The notes under the pieces: model-generated
What the model was told of the DNA's origin: nothing
Seen by the model: only the letters and a program-made list of their open reading frames with translations
The model's database searches: none
Position numbers and translations under genes: made by a program
Assembly: GCA_028711165.1 (NCBI GenBank)
Contig: JAQTST010000001.1
Location: 454,558-478,557, forward strand
Source of the DNA: Candidatus Nanoarchaeia archaeon
GTDB taxonomy: Archaea > Nanobdellota > Nanobdellia > Pacearchaeales > GW2011-AR1
DNA length: 24,000 nucleotides
Direction of reading: 5' to 3'
Shown: piece after piece, positions 1 to 23,608 of the stretch
Position numbering within the stretch: position 1 is the stretch's first letter
Layout: each line of letters opens with the position of its first letter

Positions 1-207
1 AAACCAAATCATGCTTGCCATACCAGCAGCGAATACAGTACCATCGGGAAGTCCGCCTTCAATAAAAATAGCCAGAATTGGAGTAATTAATCCAAATCCT
101 CCAAGGATAAAAATATCAGACAGGATTAATATTCTTAATGTCTTATTCATTTTCAAATCTGCACTAAACAGTTTCCACTTTTTATGCAAATTAAATTTCT
201 TTTTCAT
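1..207 (-). CDS. Partial CDS running off the left edge: N-terminus of a polytopic membrane protein, possibly an MFS-type transporter
   Basis: Minus-strand ATG at 207-205 preceded by GAGGGA. My translation is MKKKFNLHKKWKLFSADLKMNKTLRILILSDIFILGGFGLITPILAIFIEGGLPDGTVFAAGMASMIWF, open to base 1 and forming a plausible TM helix. It is missing from the ORF track because it is open-ended. The listed + ORF 11..238 looks like its antisense shadow. Confidence 0.5.
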   Translation of the reverse strand, partial: MKKKFNLHKKWKLFSADLKMNKTLRILILSDIFILGGFGLITPILAIFIEGGLPDGTVFAAGMASMIWF

Positions 208-297
208 CTTCCCTCTTTTAAATTATAATCAAAATTAGTATTTAAATTTTTAGAATAACAAACTTTAAATTCTCTTAGAAATAAGAATAATTATCTA

Positions 298-352
298 GCC
301 CACATGCATAGTTCGGGAGTAACCCTCTCGCTTCGCGAATACAATGTGGGTG
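298..352 (+). other. tRNA-like minihelix or tRNA-Ser fragment just upstream of tRNA-Ser
   Basis: GCCCACAT-GCATAGT (298-312) copies the 5' acceptor and D-arm start of the tRNA at 362. TGTGGGTG (345-352) copies its 3' acceptor plus discriminator with one change. The two ends can form a 7-bp acceptor-like helix around a GC-rich core containing a TCGC-TTC-GCGA hairpin. Confidence 0.45.
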
Positions 353-361
353 TAAAACTGT

Positions 362-581
362 GCCCACATCGCATAGTGGTATTGCAGCGGATTGCTATCA
401 AGCGACTTTCCCTTCGGGTTGAGAGTCCACCTCGAGATTCCATTTATGGAAGCTCAATTAAGGTTTTGTCTTTCCCCTTCGGGGTTGAGAGATTTGCTTC
501 TCCCTTCGGGTTGAGAAGCCTTGCTTTCGAGCAAATATCCGCGCCCTTCGGGGCTCGCAGGTTCGATTCCTGCTGTGGGCG
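362..581 (+). tRNA. tRNA-Ser(GCU) with a ~139-nt intron (about 398-536) at the canonical 37/38 position
   Basis: Manual cloverleaf. Acceptor GCCCACA (362-368) pairs with TGTGGGC (574-580), discriminator G581, no encoded CCA. D arm GCA/TGC with a GG-containing loop. Anticodon stem GCGGA (387-391) pairs with TCCGC (538-542); loop TT-GCT-A. Long variable arm GCCC-TTCG-GGGC (543-554), typical of a class II tRNA. T arm GCAGG-TTCGATT-CCTGC (557-573). TTGCT (392-396), which includes the GCT anticodon, pairs with intron AGCAA (530-534), as expected for a BHB-type splice substrate. Confidence 0.8.
404..519 (+). repeat. Three copies of one hairpin module inside the tRNA-Ser intron (404-427, 468-493, 496-519), plus a separate hairpin at 434-455
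   Basis: Each module has a 6-bp lower stem, a 3-4 bp C:G upper stem capped by TTCG, and a 3-nt TTG bulge on the 3' strand before AGAnnn. Sequences: GACTTT-CCC-TTCG-GGG-TTG-AGAGTC; GTCTTT-CCCC-TTCG-GGGG-TTG-AGAGAT; GCTTCT-CCC-TTCG-GGG-TTG-AGAAGC. The lower stems differ by compensatory changes. Confidence 0.7.
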
Positions 582-586
582 TTATT

Positions 587-609
587 ATCGAACCTGGAAC
601 AGGTACGAT
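587..609 (+). other. Stable hairpin immediately 3' of tRNA-Ser
   Basis: ATCG-A-ACCTG-GAA-CAGGT-A-CGAT: 9 bp with one A.A mismatch, following the T-rich GTTATT trailer. It could be a processing or termination structure. Confidence 0.35.
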
Positions 610-647
610 TCCCGAGCGACTTTGCGAAAGTAGGGTCAGTGTTGAAT

Positions 648-720
648 GAGCGGGGTCGCGAGTTGTCTGTGGGCGTGCGAGGACACCTAATCGGTTTCCT
701 TAACTCGAACCCCCACTCGA
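648..720 (+). repeat. GC-rich hairpin region containing a decayed copy of the tRNA-Ser 3' end
   Basis: GGGGTCGCGAGTTGTCTGTGGGCG (652-675) aligns to tRNA 550-581 (GGGGCTCGCAGGTTCGATTCCTGCTGTGGGCG) with the T-loop deleted. GAGCGGGG (648-655) can pair with CCCCACTC (711-718). Confidence 0.45.
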
Positions 721-847
721 ATTTTTCAAATTTGACTTCGTGATTCCATCTCGTGAAAATTCTCGGCTTAATCTTCCCTTTAAATTTGTGGTCACGCTTG
801 ATTTTTATCACAATAATATTTAAAAATAAATTTTTCTAAGGGAGATT

Positions 848-1105
848 ATGGAAAATATTTTGAGGACAGAAATAGATAATAAAAAAGTATATTTTCGAGA
901 TGCAAAAGGAAGCAGGTTTATATTGGGAGATTTGGGAAGAACTCTTGAAAAAGAATTAATTGGGAAAGCTAAAGGAGACGGTGAAAAAGGATTTCTATTT
1001 TATGTAAGTGAAGAAGAAAATGAAAATAATATAACAATTTCCCGAGAAGAATACAGCAGACTTGTAGGATACGCCAACGAAAAACTTTCTTTAGAAATAG
1101 ATTAG
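848..1105 (+). CDS. Hypothetical small acidic protein (85 aa)
   Basis: ORF with a GGGAG Shine-Dalgarno-like motif 5-9 nt upstream. No recognisable domain. Its stop codon directly abuts the stop codon of the convergent GGDEF gene. Confidence 0.55.
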   Translation: MENILRTEIDNKKVYFRDAKGSRFILGDLGRTLEKELIGKAKGDGEKGFLFYVSEEENENNITISREEYSRLVGYANEKLSLEID

Positions 1106-1702
1106 TTATTTAACCGCGACGAATTTGTCTCTGCCAATACTTTTTGCGTTGTATAATGCTTTATCGACTCTCTCCTTGAATTTCTTTTTGCTATCTTCTT
1201 TTGTCCTGAATTGAGTAACTCCGCCGCTGACAGTCAGTTTATGTTTTTTTAAAGTTTTATCTGCGTGGACTAATCTTCTTAATTTCAGAGAAAAAGATTT
1301 TGCTTTTTCCAAATCTGTTTCCGGAAGCAGGATGATAAATTCTTCTCCGCCGAACCTCGCTGCGATGTCTGATTTTCTTACATTTTTTCTTATTACGTCT
1401 GCAAGTTTTTTCAGCAGCTCGTCGGCTTTCATATGCCCGTATTTATCATTTACCTTTTTGAAAAAATCTATGTCAATTATTATCATAGAAAGTTTTTGCT
1501 GTCCTCGTTTTGCTTTCTCGATTTCCATATCAAGAAGCGTTTCGAAAAATTTGTTGTTGTACAATCCTGTTTTCTCGTCGTGGGTTGCAACTTCGTAAAG
1601 CATCGAGACAGATTCGCTCATAGATTCAAATAATTCTTCTATTTTTTTCCTGAACCTCGGGTCGAGTGCCGAAAGTTTCTTTTTAATTTTTCTATCCATC
1701 AA
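1106..1702 (-). CDS. Stand-alone GGDEF-domain diguanylate cyclase (198 aa)
   Basis: Hallmarks of the GGDEF domain family: DEKTGLYN, IDIDFFKKVNDKYGH, and the active-site motif RFGGEEFIILL. An intact I-site RKSD lies five residues upstream of GGEEF. No sensor or transmembrane domain. Confidence 0.9.
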   Translation of the reverse strand: MMDRKIKKKLSALDPRFRKKIEELFESMSESVSMLYEVATHDEKTGLYNNKFFETLLDMEIEKAKRGQQKLSMIIIDIDFFKKVNDKYGHMKADELLKKLADVIRKNVRKSDIAARFGGEEFIILLPETDLEKAKSFSLKLRRLVHADKTLKKHKLTVSGGVTQFRTKEDSKKKFKERVDKALYNAKSIGRDKFVAVK

Positions 1703-13523: not shown

Positions 13524-14303
13524 ATGAAAAGAAAAAGAGAAATTATTTTGCTGGGTATTTTGATATTGCTGATGTTTGTTATAAATTACAGCTTTGTTGA
13601 TAATGCGGTTGTTGAATTTCTTGACGATTATGAAACAACGATTGTGGAAAGAGTTATCGACGGTGACACGATTGTCGTCGGGAATGACACCCATGTGAGA
13701 CTGCTGGGAATTAACACGCCTGAAAAAGGGGAGAAATATTACAATGAAGCGAAAAATTTTTTATCGATGGTAATTCTCAACAAGACAGTTGAATTAAGGT
13801 TTGGAAAAGAGAGATATGACAGATACGGAAGAGAACTTGCTTACGTGTTTTATAATGATGCAAATGTAAATCTGGAATTAGTCGACGAGGGCTATGCGAA
13901 TTTTTATTTTCCGTCGGGAAAAGATGAATATTATGACAGGGCTGTAAAAAATTGGGAGCACTGCATTTCAAATAACAAATATCTCTGCGAAAAATCCGAC
14001 GACAAATGTGCTGACTGCGTTGAGTTGGAAGAATTTGAAAATCAGGAAGTTATCTTCGGAAATAATTGCAATTTTGAATGTGATTTAACCGGCTGGAGCA
14101 TTAAAGATGAAGGGAGGAAGAAATTTATTTTTGGGGATTTTGTTCTTGAAAAAAATAAAGAAGTGAAAATCATCGTCGGCAACAAGACAAACAGCAACGG
14201 CATTTTGTACTGGAAGAATGAAGATTATGTCTGGACAGAAACAGGAGACACTTTATTTTTGCGAGATAAAGGGGGGAAGCTGGTTTTGTGGAAGAAATAT
14301 TAG
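13524..14303 (+). CDS. Membrane-anchored extracellular thermonuclease (SNase fold) fused to a lamin-tail-like domain
   Basis: N-terminal TM anchor. SNase motifs VIDGDTIVV, VRLLGINTPE, YDRYGRELAYVF and NLELVDEGYA. The C-terminal part CDLTGWSIKDEGRKKFIFGDFVLEKNKEVKIIVG resembles the LTD domain. Confidence 0.8.
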   Translation: MKRKREIILLGILILLMFVINYSFVDNAVVEFLDDYETTIVERVIDGDTIVVGNDTHVRLLGINTPEKGEKYYNEAKNFLSMVILNKTVELRFGKERYDRYGRELAYVFYNDANVNLELVDEGYANFYFPSGKDEYYDRAVKNWEHCISNNKYLCEKSDDKCADCVELEEFENQEVIFGNNCNFECDLTGWSIKDEGRKKFIFGDFVLEKNKEVKIIVGNKTNSNGILYWKNEDYVWTETGDTLFLRDKGGKLVLWKKY

Positions 14304-14817: not shown

Positions 14818-16209
14818 ATGAGAAAAAATATTTTAGGTATTTTAGCATTCGTAATGGCTTTCGTCATGATTGGTGGAGTTAGTGCTACTATTGCAGATGG
14901 TGTTGTATTTACTTCACCCGCATTAAGTAGTTATGTTCATAGTACAATAAATGTGCAGTGGACAAATGTACATAGTTATCCAACTTTAACTTTGCAATAT
15001 GTTCAAGGAGAATGTAATGCAAGCGAAGGATGGACAAGTATTGGTTCTGAAAATATGCCTTCAACCAAATTAAGTTCCTCTTGGAATACTGCAGGATTAG
15101 ATGATGGAAACTATTGTTTGAGACTTCAAACTGCTAGCCTTCTAACTGAAGATTCTGTGGCAGTAACTGTAGATAATGAAAAACCTATTGCAAAAATTGC
15201 AGTAACTGGAAATAAAATTCAATACGAAAAATTGAACTTTTATGGAAATGGTTCTACAGATAATAATGGAATTGCAAGTTACTTATGGGAATTTGGTGAT
15301 GGAAGTACAAGTACTGAGATGAATCCAACTCACTCTTATTTAGTAGTAGATGATTATACTGTTAAACTAACAGTAACTGATTCAGCAGGAAACAAAGATT
15401 CTGCAACAAAGTCTATTACTATAGCAGATATTCCTTATGAAGAACCAAGCACAGTTTTTGAAGCTGGAATAAGAGAAATGTTAGACTTACACAGTTCAAT
15501 TGATACTGGTTTAACAGGAACAATAGAATGTAGTGTATTGCCTTCTAGTCTTCCTATAGACGGACTCGTCTTAGGTGAATCTGGAAGCAATTGTACTTTT
15601 GACTGGACAAATATTCCTTATTCTTACCGAGGATTGCATGAATTATCTATAAGGGTAAGTAGCACTGAAGCTGCTACACCAAAGTACTTCAAGGTAGACA
15701 TAACAGTTTACACTTGGATGGCTCCTCTTGTTGTAACAAATGAGAACTACGGATGGAATATGTTTTCAATTCCAATGATGCCTGCAGATACTGACAGCGA
15801 TTCTGTATTAGCTAATATAAAAGATAATATGGATAGCGATAATGTATGGCAATATGATGCAACTGCACAGAAATGGAAGAAGACAACAAAGATTGTTCCA
15901 GGATATGCATACAGAGTAAAGATGAAAGCTACTGACACTTTGAAAGGTTTCGGAAACATTGAAGGAAGTCAGGTTCCAGTTGTAAATGGCTGGAATGCTA
16001 TTGGACATTACGGAATTAATTCTGTATCAATAGATGATGCTTTGACAAGTTTAACTTTGGGAGATGTTAAGTTCTATGATAGTATTCTATCAAGCAGCTC
16101 AACATTCGATGCTTATCAAGGTTATTTCTTAACTGCTAAATTCCTGCCAGATACATCTGAACTTTACACTCCATCACAGAGTGTTATAAATTATATCTTG
16201 GCAGATTAA
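14818..16209 (+). CDS. Secreted surface protein with a PKD domain (463 aa)
   Basis: Strong AGGAGG Shine-Dalgarno motif and a signal peptide. Canonical PKD core YLWEFGDGSTSTEMNPTHSYLVVDDYTVKLTVTDSAGNKDSATKSITI. Ig-like N-terminal domain. The C-terminal GWNMFSIP...PGYAYRVK module is of a kind common in surface proteins. Confidence 0.8.
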   Translation: MRKNILGILAFVMAFVMIGGVSATIADGVVFTSPALSSYVHSTINVQWTNVHSYPTLTLQYVQGECNASEGWTSIGSENMPSTKLSSSWNTAGLDDGNYCLRLQTASLLTEDSVAVTVDNEKPIAKIAVTGNKIQYEKLNFYGNGSTDNNGIASYLWEFGDGSTSTEMNPTHSYLVVDDYTVKLTVTDSAGNKDSATKSITIADIPYEEPSTVFEAGIREMLDLHSSIDTGLTGTIECSVLPSSLPIDGLVLGESGSNCTFDWTNIPYSYRGLHELSIRVSSTEAATPKYFKVDITVYTWMAPLVVTNENYGWNMFSIPMMPADTDSDSVLANIKDNMDSDNVWQYDATAQKWKKTTKIVPGYAYRVKMKATDTLKGFGNIEGSQVPVVNGWNAIGHYGINSVSIDDALTSLTLGDVKFYDSILSSSSTFDAYQGYFLTAKFLPDTSELYTPSQSVINYILAD

Positions 16210-21831: not shown

Positions 21832-22314
21832 ATGGTAAAGAAATTCAGGATAAAAAATAAGAGGGGGCTTTCTCCGGTAATTACAACGGTGTTATTAATT
21901 GCACTTGTAGTTGTAAGCACGTCGATAGTTTTTTTATGGTTCCGTGGAATGGTTGAAGAAGGAGTTACAAAATTCGGGAAAAATATAAAGCTCGTCTGCG
22001 ACGATGTTGATTTCAAAGCAGAATATAATGCAGGAACATTAAGCGTCGTAAATAATGGAAACATTCCGATATATAATTTGAATTTAAGAATATCCAGCGG
22101 AGGAAATTTCGAGACAAGAGAGATATCAGAAATTTCCGGAGTAGATTGGCCTGAAACAGGATTGGCACAGGGAGGTTCTTTTGCGGGAAATATTGCGGGA
22201 GAAGTTGGAAGTGCAAGTGAGATGATAGTATCCCCAATCTTAGTGGGAACATCAAGCAGCGGTCAAAAAACTTATATATGCGGGGGGCAATATGGTAAAG
22301 AGCTTCCTGTATAA
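21832..22314 (+). CDS. Archaeal type IV pilin-like protein 3
   Basis: NKRGLSPVITTVLLIALVVVSTSIVFLWF is a textbook archaeal pilin N-terminal domain. It is followed by a beta-rich globular part. Confidence 0.8.
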   Translation: MVKKFRIKNKRGLSPVITTVLLIALVVVSTSIVFLWFRGMVEEGVTKFGKNIKLVCDDVDFKAEYNAGTLSVVNNGNIPIYNLNLRISSGGNFETREISEISGVDWPETGLAQGGSFAGNIAGEVGSASEMIVSPILVGTSSSGQKTYICGGQYGKELPV

Positions 22315-23608
22315 AAATAAAAAGGGTTTATCGACGATTATTATAACTTTGATTTTAATTCTTGTCTCGTTAGTTGCAATTGGAATTTTTTGGGTTGTTA
22401 TAAACAATTTAATAAAAAGCGGGACAGAAGGTATTGGTCTGGGGAGATTGACACTTAATGCAGAAATTAAAAGTGTCAGCATCGATAACTCATCAAATAA
22501 TGTTACTTTAACTGTAGAAAGAAAAGTTGGAGCAGGAGAGATGACAGGAATCAAATTTATTTTTTACAGCGATACTGATACAGAAATAATTACTGAAGAT
22601 ATTGAACTCGAACAATTAAAAGAAGCACAGTTTACTTTTCATTTGTTAATGAACGTCGGTGATATAACAAAGATTTCAATTGCACCAATTTTCAGTTCCA
22701 GCGAGGGTGAAGAAAGTGTTGGAAATGTTCTTGATACTTATAATGTTGAAGAACAACCTCCTGTTCCACCGTGTGTGCCTGCTATTAATCCTTGCGGAAC
22801 AAGAGTTTGCGGAAGTGTTACAAACGGAACTTGCGGAAGCATCAGCTGCGGAACCTGTACAGGAGGACAGGAATGTAATTCAACAGGGCAATGTTCTACT
22901 CCTTGTGTCCCATCATCATGCGGTTTATTAGGTTATGAATGCGGAGGACCTTACAACAACGGAACTTGTTTTGGAACATTTAGTTGCGGAGGTTGTATGG
23001 GGGAAGATGTATGTATTGCAGGACATTGTCAACTGAATATAACTCCAATCTTGTGGTATAAGTTCGACGGTAATTTATTAGATTCGGGAGTCGCGCCGGC
23101 AATGGATGGTGCCTGGACAAATGGAACAGGAACTTTTGTAACTGGTTTCAGCGGACAAGCAGCAGATTTTGCAGGGGTTAATGGAATAACAGGAAATGTA
23201 GGTTCTAAAATTGGAAATTTATCTCAAATGACAATTTCAGTTTATGCAAAGAAAAATGTGGCTAGTCAGGGAGGAGATTTATTCTACAAACATGTTCAGT
23301 ATAGAATTATAATCTCCCAGAATTATGTAACTGGTCAAATTTATATCGGAGGAAATGTCACAGAGGTTGCTGGAATAGCAAATATAGATAATACTAACTG
23401 GCATCAATATACCTTGAATTATAACGGTACAGCATTAAAAATTTATGTTGATGGAACTGAGATTGATTCAGAAATTGCAACGGGGAATGTTGATGATTCT
23501 CAATGGCAGGAGCTTTTAATTGGAAATCAGCCGATTGCATGGAGCGGAACATATTTCAACGGGCAGGTTGATGAGTTTAAAATTTATAACAGATCCATAA
23601 CGTCATAA
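22292..23608 (+). CDS. Pilin-like N-terminus fused to two Cys-rich repeats and a C-terminal LamG/concanavalin-like lectin domain (438 aa); putative pilus adhesin
   Basis: NKKGLSTIIITLILILVSLVAIGIFWVV is the pilin-type N-terminus. Two Cys-rich repeats of about 45 aa each (PCVPAINPCGTRVCG...GQC and PCVPSSCGLLGYECGG...GHCQ). LamG_3-like pattern: LWYKFDGNLLDSG...MTISVYAK...WHQYTLNYNGTALKIYVDG...FNGQVDEFKIYNRS. It overlaps the upstream gene by 23 nt. Confidence 0.8.
   Translation: MVKSFLYKNKKGLSTIIITLILILVSLVAIGIFWVVINNLIKSGTEGIGLGRLTLNAEIKSVSIDNSSNNVTLTVERKVGAGEMTGIKFIFYSDTDTEIITEDIELEQLKEAQFTFHLLMNVGDITKISIAPIFSSSEGEESVGNVLDTYNVEEQPPVPPCVPAINPCGTRVCGSVTNGTCGSISCGTCTGGQECNSTGQCSTPCVPSSCGLLGYECGGPYNNGTCFGTFSCGGCMGEDVCIAGHCQLNITPILWYKFDGNLLDSGVAPAMDGAWTNGTGTFVTGFSGQAADFAGVNGITGNVGSKIGNLSQMTISVYAKKNVASQGGDLFYKHVQYRIIISQNYVTGQIYIGGNVTEVAGIANIDNTNWHQYTLNYNGTALKIYVDGTEIDSEIATGNVDDSQWQELLIGNQPIAWSGTYFNGQVDEFKIYNRSITS

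Follow-up and report, generated by a model that had tools for sequence, protein, structure and literature searches.

What does an archaeal tRNA intron hold when it is several times longer than its removal would seem to need, and is its content a mere spacer or something on which selection has acted? The question is raised by a 24,000-nt stretch of the genome of a Candidatus Nanoarchaeia archaeon (contig JAQTST010000001.1, positions 454,558 to 478,557 of the forward strand; hereafter the window), in which a tRNA-Ser(GCU) gene close to the left end is split by 139 nt of sequence made up of short hairpins, three of them copies of one bulged module. By comparing this intron with its counterparts in related genomes and metagenomes we find that it belongs to a family of a known kind of element, the archaeal bulge-helix-bulge (BHB) tRNA intron, but that the conserved cargo of this family is of a new kind.

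An intact tRNA-Ser(GCU) gene interrupted at the canonical site

With introns allowed, ARAGORN calls tRNA-Ser(GCU) at 361-582 and places a 139-nt intron, 398-536, between tRNA positions 37 and 38, in line with a sequence-only reading of the locus that had proposed an insert of about this length at this point of a class II tRNA. The gene is overlooked by default ARAGORN and at Rfam gathering thresholds because the intron is long, and under those settings only a tRNA-Thr and a tRNA-Leu near 12 kb are reported in the window. A relative (locus L026) has an uninterrupted tRNA-Ser(GCU) that matches both exons (362-397 and 537-581) base for base, so the intron boundaries are exact, and excision of the insert restores the canonical class II cloverleaf, as judged from the ARAGORN fold and from contiguous orthologs. 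These comparisons show that 362-581 holds a tRNA-Ser(GCU) gene of a DPANN archaeon that is intact and promoter-associated but split at the canonical 37/38 site; its putative promoter is the box AACTTTAAAT at 261-270, assigned from its position and conservation.

The splice signals fit a relaxed rather than a strict bulge-helix-bulge motif. In all 22 intron-bearing genes compared, the UUGC of the anticodon loop pairs 4/4 with the intron bases just before the last two (GCAA in the module-bearing family and in one 21-nt intron, GUGA or GUAA elsewhere), flanked by bulges of the form UA/N and AN/A with the splice sites two bases into each. The window's own bulges, U396 A397 / U398 on the 5' side and A535 U536 / A537 on the 3' side, are both 3 nt, and every one of the 18 family introns ends in GCAAAU. 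A pair closing the 5' bulge is found in 21/22 genes and covaries (U-A, U.G, C-G, G-C), to the point of being the sole difference between loci L033 and L038. Helix h is the 5-bp anticodon stem, while helix h' measures 1-5 bp in 21/22 genes and is missing from the window copy; it is because h' is short, and in the window absent, that we call the motif relaxed. The last hairpin of the intron always takes at least the G and C of GCAA and is thus mutually exclusive with the splice helix.

As in archaeal tRNA splicing generally, pairing of the anticodon-loop UUGC with the intron GCAA would create this relaxed motif, the splicing endonuclease EndA would cut both 3-nt bulges, after A397 and after U536, and the ligase RtcB would join the exons and probably circularise the intron. 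DPANN EndAs have an extra loop (L3) that is associated with heavily disrupted tRNA genes (PMC5829648); neither the window nor the 20-kb locus L001, which reaches upstream of it, contains an EndA gene.

The 37/38 site, the 4-bp helix, the two 3-nt bulges and the restored cloverleaf are all shared with the canonical introns processed by EndA and RtcB. Unlike these, the window's family runs to 100-153 nt, several times the usual length, has a helix of just 0-5 bp beyond the 5' bulge, and carries conserved modular RNA content in place of an unconstrained spacer. The usual length had been given in the sequence-only reading as 15-40 nt, which agrees with an intron of about 41 nt in the same genome: an initiator-type tRNA-Met(CAU) in L001, about 2.15-2.27 kb upstream of window position 1 and on the minus strand relative to the window, has an insert of that size at 37/38, with CCCA pairing with UGGG as the splice helix. 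Its orthologs in L020 and L036 are uninterrupted, and the gene in L001 is not called by ARAGORN even with introns allowed.

No known intron cargo could be matched to the insert, as had been anticipated: it has no Rfam family, no C/D boxes and no open reading frame (ORF). The sole ORFs crossing 398-536 run through the tRNA exons, and the Rfam group I and group II intron models give no match at gathering or E <= 10 thresholds. Group I, group II and homing-endonuclease introns were rejected on the missing catalytic-core match and on a length of 139 nt, too small for an endonuclease ORF. Against Rfam 15, a permissive scan of window positions 1-1200 and of two homologous loci returned chance-level matches only; a cyclic di-GMP riboswitch match on the opposite strand of L006 (E 1.2) was dismissed as chance despite an adjacent GGDEF gene. 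A box C/D RNA was likewise set aside, TGATGA and CTGA both being missing from 398-536 and no small nucleolar RNA (snoRNA) family being matched at E = 1 or better. Full-text searches of the literature found no description of this intron family.

Hairpin modules and their conservation in relatives

The window intron folds as a chain of independent hairpins without long-range helices (Table 1). Its three modules (M1 to M3) lie where they were first proposed, at 404-427, 468-493 and 496-519, and a fourth hairpin proposed at 434-455 is present as the inner part of a longer one, 429-464; a fifth, at 521-534, goes beyond that first list and overlaps the splice-motif strand GCAA (531-534). The repetition of the module within the intron is not chance: shuffles predict 0.02 exact matches to its 18-mer core, and 2 are observed. 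The compensatory differences noted earlier among the three lower stems are real, and a repeated bulged hairpin is indeed what the modules form, but its detailed anatomy has to be redrawn: in the favoured fold the lower stem is 7 bp long, the bulge is UU (2 nt) and the C:G upper stem has 2 bp (3 bp in M2), the top being limited to 2 bp in M1 and M3 because the UUCG tetraloop leaves just two G above the bulge. The 6-bp stem, UUG bulge and CCC:GGG top originally drawn correspond to a register-shifted alternative of the same helix, with a UUC triloop. Directly after M1, at window positions 426-433, stands GUCCACCU(C), which the window's subfamily keeps without change (alignment A2, columns 40-48) and part of which pairs with AAGGU at 460-464; it resembles CACCUCC, the anti-Shine-Dalgarno end of 16S rRNA.

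Relatives were collected by two independent scans, one with a 3'-exon pattern over one genome per species, which retrieved 24 orthologous tRNA-Ser(GCU) loci, and one of metagenomes with a 20-mer of the module, which retrieved 22 loci. Of the genome orthologs 15 are intronless, 5 have homologous long introns, 2 have unrelated long introns and 2 have short ones; the metagenome loci comprise tRNA-Ser(GCU) introns (15/22) and unrelated single hairpins (7/22). With the window included, the family amounts to 18 distinct full-length introns of 100-153 nt and one truncated copy, and all the full-length genes are called by ARAGORN as tRNA-Ser(GCU) with the intron at 37/38. The loci of the relatives are labelled Woesearchaeota, Pacearchaeota or Nanoarchaeia. 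The family is shown to be restricted to tRNA-Ser(GCU) in Woesearchaeota/Pacearchaeota-type genomes. A covariance model of the module (R1), run over 317 kb made up of the window and related loci, gave 50 matches, 49 of them within these introns and the other a weak one that we put down to chance (E 0.44), so that within the sequence searched the module is confined to this intron.

Each family intron consists of 4-7 independent hairpins, 2-3 of which are modules, for a total of 41 modules. Third modules orthologous to M3 of the window occur in L035 and L041, and the second module of L047 equals the third of L035 in sequence. The 5', middle and terminal hairpins stay paired across relatives through changed sequences, among them AGGC/GCCU, AAGC/GCUU and UUGGC/GCCAA in one set and CCUUUC/GAAAGG, CUCUC/GAGAG and GCUUUC/GAAAGC in another, and the inner hairpin of the middle one is swapped for CGC-UUCG-GCG or CGCUUUUAGCG. 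Linkers and non-module hairpins have diverged beyond alignment across lineages.

The modules themselves have behaved differently. Alignment A1, of the 22 distinct loop-intact modules among the 41, was compared with 500 shuffles. Seven of its columns are invariant and nine more at least 90% identical, together reading CUUUCCC-UUCG-GGUUGAGAG; the core, with CUUUCCC on the 5' side, UUCGGGUUGAGAG on the 3' side and the UU bulge, makes up about 17-20 nearly invariant nucleotides per module. The three outermost stem pairs, by contrast, each show 4-5 pair types. Paired cells reach 96.7% (81.7 +/- 1.5% in shuffles), double-sided changes affect six pairs and 35 cells (10.7 +/- 2.7 in shuffles), and none of the 500 shuffles attains the observed pairing and covariation values; when the partner is slid by 1-3 columns, pairing drops to just 39-63%. 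A mid-stem U.G wobble, which on the opposite strand would be a C.A mismatch, is kept in 16/22 modules, so selection acts on RNA made from the + strand. In 8/41 modules the tetraloop is replaced by an inserted hairpin, variable in sequence and self-complementary, with CUUUCCC and UUCGGGUUGAGAG kept, as in the module orthologous to M2 in 8 relatives; because the core survives replacement of the loop, the constrained element is the bulge-containing helix and not its cap. The check on homologous loci called for by the sequence-only reading, which had argued for selection on structure, thus yields both covariation and strong conservation, and on these alignments we show the modules to be under selection at the RNA level for structure and for core sequence alike.

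Other introns occupy the same site, and these we record beside the module family. A second, unrelated family of long introns is found at 37/38 of tRNA-Ser(GCU) in L004 (5312-5436, 125 nt) and L007 (4584-4701, 118 nt), with repeated hairpins of its own, GGACCAAAGUCC and GAACCAAAGGUUC; the L004 intron opens with a C-box-like AUGAUGA that the L007 intron lacks. Short introns are present in L018 (21 nt) and L022 (24 nt), the former ending in CGCAAAU as in the long family. The L018 intron looks like a deletion remnant, and its sequence suggests that the intron may shrink stepwise before it is lost.

The patchy presence of introns similar in sequence across genomes recalls the transposed intron families of Thermoproteales, which occupy many tRNAs and positions and for which, as far as PMC4033280 relays Fujishima et al. 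(2010), that spread argues for transposition. The window's family differs in being found only in tRNA-Ser(GCU) at 37/38, a restriction to one tRNA that fits vertical descent with repeated loss.

What the modules may be for

The reading that we favour, and to which we give about an even chance, is that the modules serve a trans-acting partner, most probably a protein, as sequence-specific sites of binding; this partner would act on the precursor or on the excised RNA. We favour it because a nearly invariant core sits on freely covarying stems, is repeated two to three times, and retains a bulge and a wobble that destabilise it. Going by the pattern of conservation, such a partner would bind two or more module sites, either on the pre-tRNA, where it would license or chaperone splicing of an intron of unusual length, or on the intron once excised. 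Hairpins with functional parallels to these are known elsewhere: CsrB and RsmZ sequester a protein via several hairpins, and the MS2 coat-protein site is a bulged operator hairpin. The modules may be likened to these in combining a short repeated hairpin with an invariant recognition core and variable stems, and to protein operator hairpins in being built of a stem, a small bulge, a further 2-3 bp and a tetraloop. The sequences are unrelated and the domain of life is another, so the likeness is a lead, one of functional analogy only.

Known archaeal RNA-protein motifs were compared as well. The proposal that L7Ae might bind the modules fails on their predicted pairing, since a kink-turn (K-turn) needs the partners of G.A and A.G pairs at positions that are U and C on the strand facing the bulge: the bulged strand GG-UU-GAGAG faces a CUUUCCC that forms Watson-Crick and wobble pairs, without sheared G.A. 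An H/ACA or BHB-like identity was rejected also, the bulge being of 2-3 nt and on one strand only, without boxes and without a second bulge.

Several observations weigh against a trans-acting partner. Pfam scans of the neighbouring ORFs gave no candidate RNA-binding protein that could be linked to the intron. In folding energy the intron does not surpass shuffled sequence (z = -1.17 sense, -1.77 antisense), so that support for its structure is comparative and not thermodynamic. The third module has decayed to a plain hairpin, with loss of the bulge, in L012, L036 and L039. No intron of any kind is present in 15/24 genome orthologs, among them L026 with its identical exons, and with so many intronless orthologs any function of the intron must be dispensable over evolutionary time. 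The window copy alone has no pair closing the 5' bulge (C399 stands opposite A530), and in minimum-free-energy (MFE) folds of 8/18 members the terminal hairpin forms in place of the splice helix; a splice-type helix in a slipped register appears in the whole-precursor MFE folds of 10/18. The conserved core could, finally, reflect a purely cis-acting constraint on folding or splicing.

That last possibility is the main rival. According to it the modules would be passengers acting in cis only, fast-folding insulators that keep the intron clear of tRNA folding and present the splice motif, and changes that break a module would block the maturation of a presumably single-copy, essential tRNA. Independent hairpins without long-range helices are what such insulators should look like; the repeated losses, with 15 intronless orthologs and a 21-nt L018 remnant that retains the family's CGCAAAU 3' end, sit well with it, as do the varying number and order of modules and the decay of M3 in some lineages; and the unrelated L004/L007 family shows that at this site content turns over while the splice pairing stays. 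Insulators, however, need structure and not sequence, yet some 17-20 nt per module are nearly invariant across diverged lineages, and the UU bulge and the U.G wobble have been kept although they weaken the hairpin. A role in cis alone therefore accounts for the losses and for module decay but not for the invariance of sequence, and we consider it possible but distinctly less than an even prospect.

A bolder version of partner binding is that the intron is a dedicated functional RNA, persisting after excision, probably as a circle, whose hairpin array recruits or titrates a specific DPANN protein; we put this forward tentatively, as a rather unlikely but consequential case. If it holds, the switch between terminal hairpin and splice helix could couple binding to the maturation of tRNA-Ser(GCU). 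Archaeal tRNA introns are excised and circularised, and the tRNA-Trp intron that houses a box C/D guide RNA in Haloferax volcanii and other Euryarchaeota persists stably in circular form (PMC3326292). It is a long intron at the canonical position that owes its conserved sequence to a role of the intron RNA itself, and it offers the best precedent for an intron with functional cargo. The window intron differs from it in having no C box (RUGAUGA), no D box (CUGA), no K-turn and no Rfam snoRNA match, in being hosted by a tRNA-Ser, and in having a bulged hairpin as its repeated unit.

The surroundings of the gene raise the further possibility that the modules work at the DNA level, as direct repeats or imperfect palindromes to which a recombinase or other DNA-binding protein would bind, tied to mobile-element traffic. 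The tRNA is flanked by degenerate partial copies of its own 5' and 3' ends (ghosts in Table 1). In relatives without an upstream fragment the box AACTTTAAAT stands 34-43 nt before the tRNA 5' end, and where fragments intervene, in the window and about ten relatives, the distance is 90-175 nt; the upstream ghost thus occupies the place, relative to the promoter-like box, that is usual for the tRNA 5' end. Moreover, in about one third of the related loci the unit spanning about 230-676 of the window (promoter, ghost, gene and downstream element) is inverted with respect to conserved flanking genes (inverted in L012, L024, L026, L031, L036 and L039; collinear in L005, L020, L033, L035, L042, L047 and L049), at intron-bearing and intronless loci alike. 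Fragments accompany 10/18 module-intron loci and 2/15 intronless ones, an association that is weak because the lineages are not phylogenetically independent. There is also a published precedent in the tRNA-Thr(GGU) locus of Caldiarchaeum subterraneum, where a tRNA fragment and an intron gain are attributed to an integrating element (PMC3293823); the fragment-plus-intron arrangement is alike, whereas the window's fragments lie tens of bases off, on both sides, with several filler types and without a recombinase gene between. Against a DNA-level role, covarying stems with G.U and U.G pairs fit one-strand RNA and not DNA palindromes, no integrase or recombinase gene was found in the window, by Pfam scans of the neighbouring ORFs or in the 20-kb locus L001, and neither the flanking fragments nor viral contigs contain the module, whose core gave 5 matches in the latter, all to unrelated GC-rich coding sequence. 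We regard such a role as improbable.

The fragments merit description on their own account. Upstream ones are also present in L006, L012, L015, L022, L024, L033, L034, L035, L038 and L039, with at least three recurring types of filler: that of the window, shared with L035, that of L006, L012, L024, L033 and L038, and that of L034 and L039. Two of the loci (L015 and L035) have two tandem copies, and between L006 and L033 the filler hairpin is kept through compensatory changes. The flanking elements fold no better than shuffles, with the exception of the window's upstream ghost (z = -2.1). We considered, and rejected, that the upstream ghost might be one more exon, separated by a non-canonical intron at 15/16: no BHB motif can be drawn (GCAU falls against GCAU), and the copies in the window and L039 are mutated. 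Downstream, the palindrome at 587-609 consists of an inverted and a direct copy of the 5' half of the T-arm (600-612 is 92% identical to 558-570), and CTGTGGGCGT at 667-676 matches the tRNA 3' end at 573-582; homologs of this downstream ghost lie 3' of the tRNA in L034, L036 and L012, and L005 and L028 have two 3'-end copies downstream. A further element, GCGAGGACACC..GGTTTCCTTCGCTTAA(T/C)CTTCCC, without Rfam match, always has a tRNA-end fragment directly beside it. In the window (677-705 and about 768-790, interrupted by an insertion of about 60 nt) and in L035 it is found on the 3' side, in L034 and L039 on the 5' side.

Very improbable, in our view, is the idea with which the sequence-only reading set out, that the modules mimic the tRNA's variable arm and serve as a decoy or recruitment site for seryl-tRNA synthetase (SerRS). 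The resemblance is real in that M2 contains CCCUUCGGGG, the very sequence at the core of the variable arm (GCCCUUCGGGGC, 543-554), that CCCUUCGGG is common to M1, M3 and the arm, and that the host is a serine tRNA in every case. The shared CCC-UUCG-GGG is, however, a generic cap: C(UUCG)G tops 22/54 non-module hairpins of these same introns and is replaced in 8/41 modules, and the invariant bulge region has no counterpart in the variable arm. SerRS, furthermore, recognises the variable arm by its length and by its orientation on the tRNA body rather than by sequence, and given that mode of reading an isolated hairpin is a poor mimic. Least credible of all is that 362-581 is a pseudogene or goes unspliced and that another place in the genome holds a second, functional tRNA-Ser(GCU). 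Although the window's splice motif is the weakest of the family (C.A for the closing pair) and the ghost before the 5' end would give the transcript a leader of about 64 nt, the exons have no defect and are identical to those of intronless orthologs, the same arrangement persists in 18 lineages, and in L041 the anticodon stem has changed on both sides (C-G to U-A), which points to continued selection in an intron-bearing gene.

Gene neighbourhood and biological meaning

The window has 35% G+C, and its genes include those for a D-aminoacyl-tRNA deacylase, TrmB, IleRS and ArgRS. The GGDEF and D-aminoacyl-tRNA deacylase genes adjacent to the tRNA also flank intronless orthologs. The former (1106-1702, minus strand) encodes a protein with a GGDEF diguanylate-cyclase domain (Pfam E = 2e-41), and its homologs flank the tRNA in many relatives; GGDEF domains are uncommon in archaea. 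Farther along, the ORF at 13524-14303 combines a staphylococcal-nuclease domain with a lamin-tail domain, and large proteins with PKD and concanavalin-like lectin domains, encoded at 14818-16209 and 22292-23608, are likely to be at the surface or secreted.

Table 1. Features of the tRNA-Ser(GCU) locus, in window coordinates
Feature	Position	Strand	Evidence
Promoter-like box AACTTTAAAT	261-270	+	position and conservation in related loci
Upstream ghost: degenerate tRNA positions 1-15 (GCCCACAU-GCAUAG, without C9), 32-nt filler, acceptor-3'-like AUGUGGGUG	298-353	+	folds as hairpin
tRNA-Ser(GCU) 5' exon, positions 1-37, anticodon GCT at 394-396	362-397	+	ARAGORN with introns; identical in contiguous genes of L026, L008, L017
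5' strand UUGC (tRNA positions 32-35) of 4-bp central splice helix	392-395	+	pairs 4/4 with GCAA 531-534
Intron at 37/38, 139 nt	398-536	+	ARAGORN; 17 other full-length homologs, all distinct
Module M1: bulged hairpin GACUUUCCC-UUCG-GGUUGAGAGUC	404-427	+	MFE fold; model R1 39.2 bits, E 3.8e-8; covariation (alignment A1)
Middle hairpin Hx, inner hairpin 434-455	429-464	+	folds; closing helix ACCU:AGGU invariant in window's subfamily
Module M2: CCCC/GGG variant, G.U closing pair	468-493	+	model R1 27 bits, E 1.4e-4
Module M3: GCUUCUCCC-UUCG-GGUUGAGAAGC	496-519	+	model R1 39 bits, E 4.3e-8
Terminal hairpin UUGCU-UUCG-AGCAA	521-534	+	folds; 3' arm holds GCAA 531-534
tRNA-Ser(GCU) 3' exon: variable arm 543-554 GCCCUUCGGGGC, T arm, acceptor strand, G73	537-581	+	ARAGORN; ortholog-retrieval pattern
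Downstream ghost: T-arm-half palindrome, about 54-nt filler, tRNA 3'-end duplicate CTGTGGGCGT	583-676	+	repeat families D13, D20

Very few archaeal tRNA introns are known whose content is selected, and the box C/D guide in tRNA-Trp is the textbook case. The module array adds a second kind of conserved intron cargo, present in at least 18 uncultured DPANN lineages and in one tRNA only. If the modules merely aid folding, the family is a well-documented curiosity and no more; if the intron is a functional RNA in its own right, it would represent a new class of intron-borne ribonucleoprotein scaffold or sponge. At one site among close relatives are found the module family, a second unrelated long family, short remnants or no intron at all, and the ghosts and repeated inversions around that site offer a natural experiment on the proposed link between mobile-element traffic and the disruption of tRNA genes. 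The family thus provides a testable handle on the role of long introns, on the recognition of relaxed splice motifs in DPANN archaea, and on how introns are gained, remodelled and lost.

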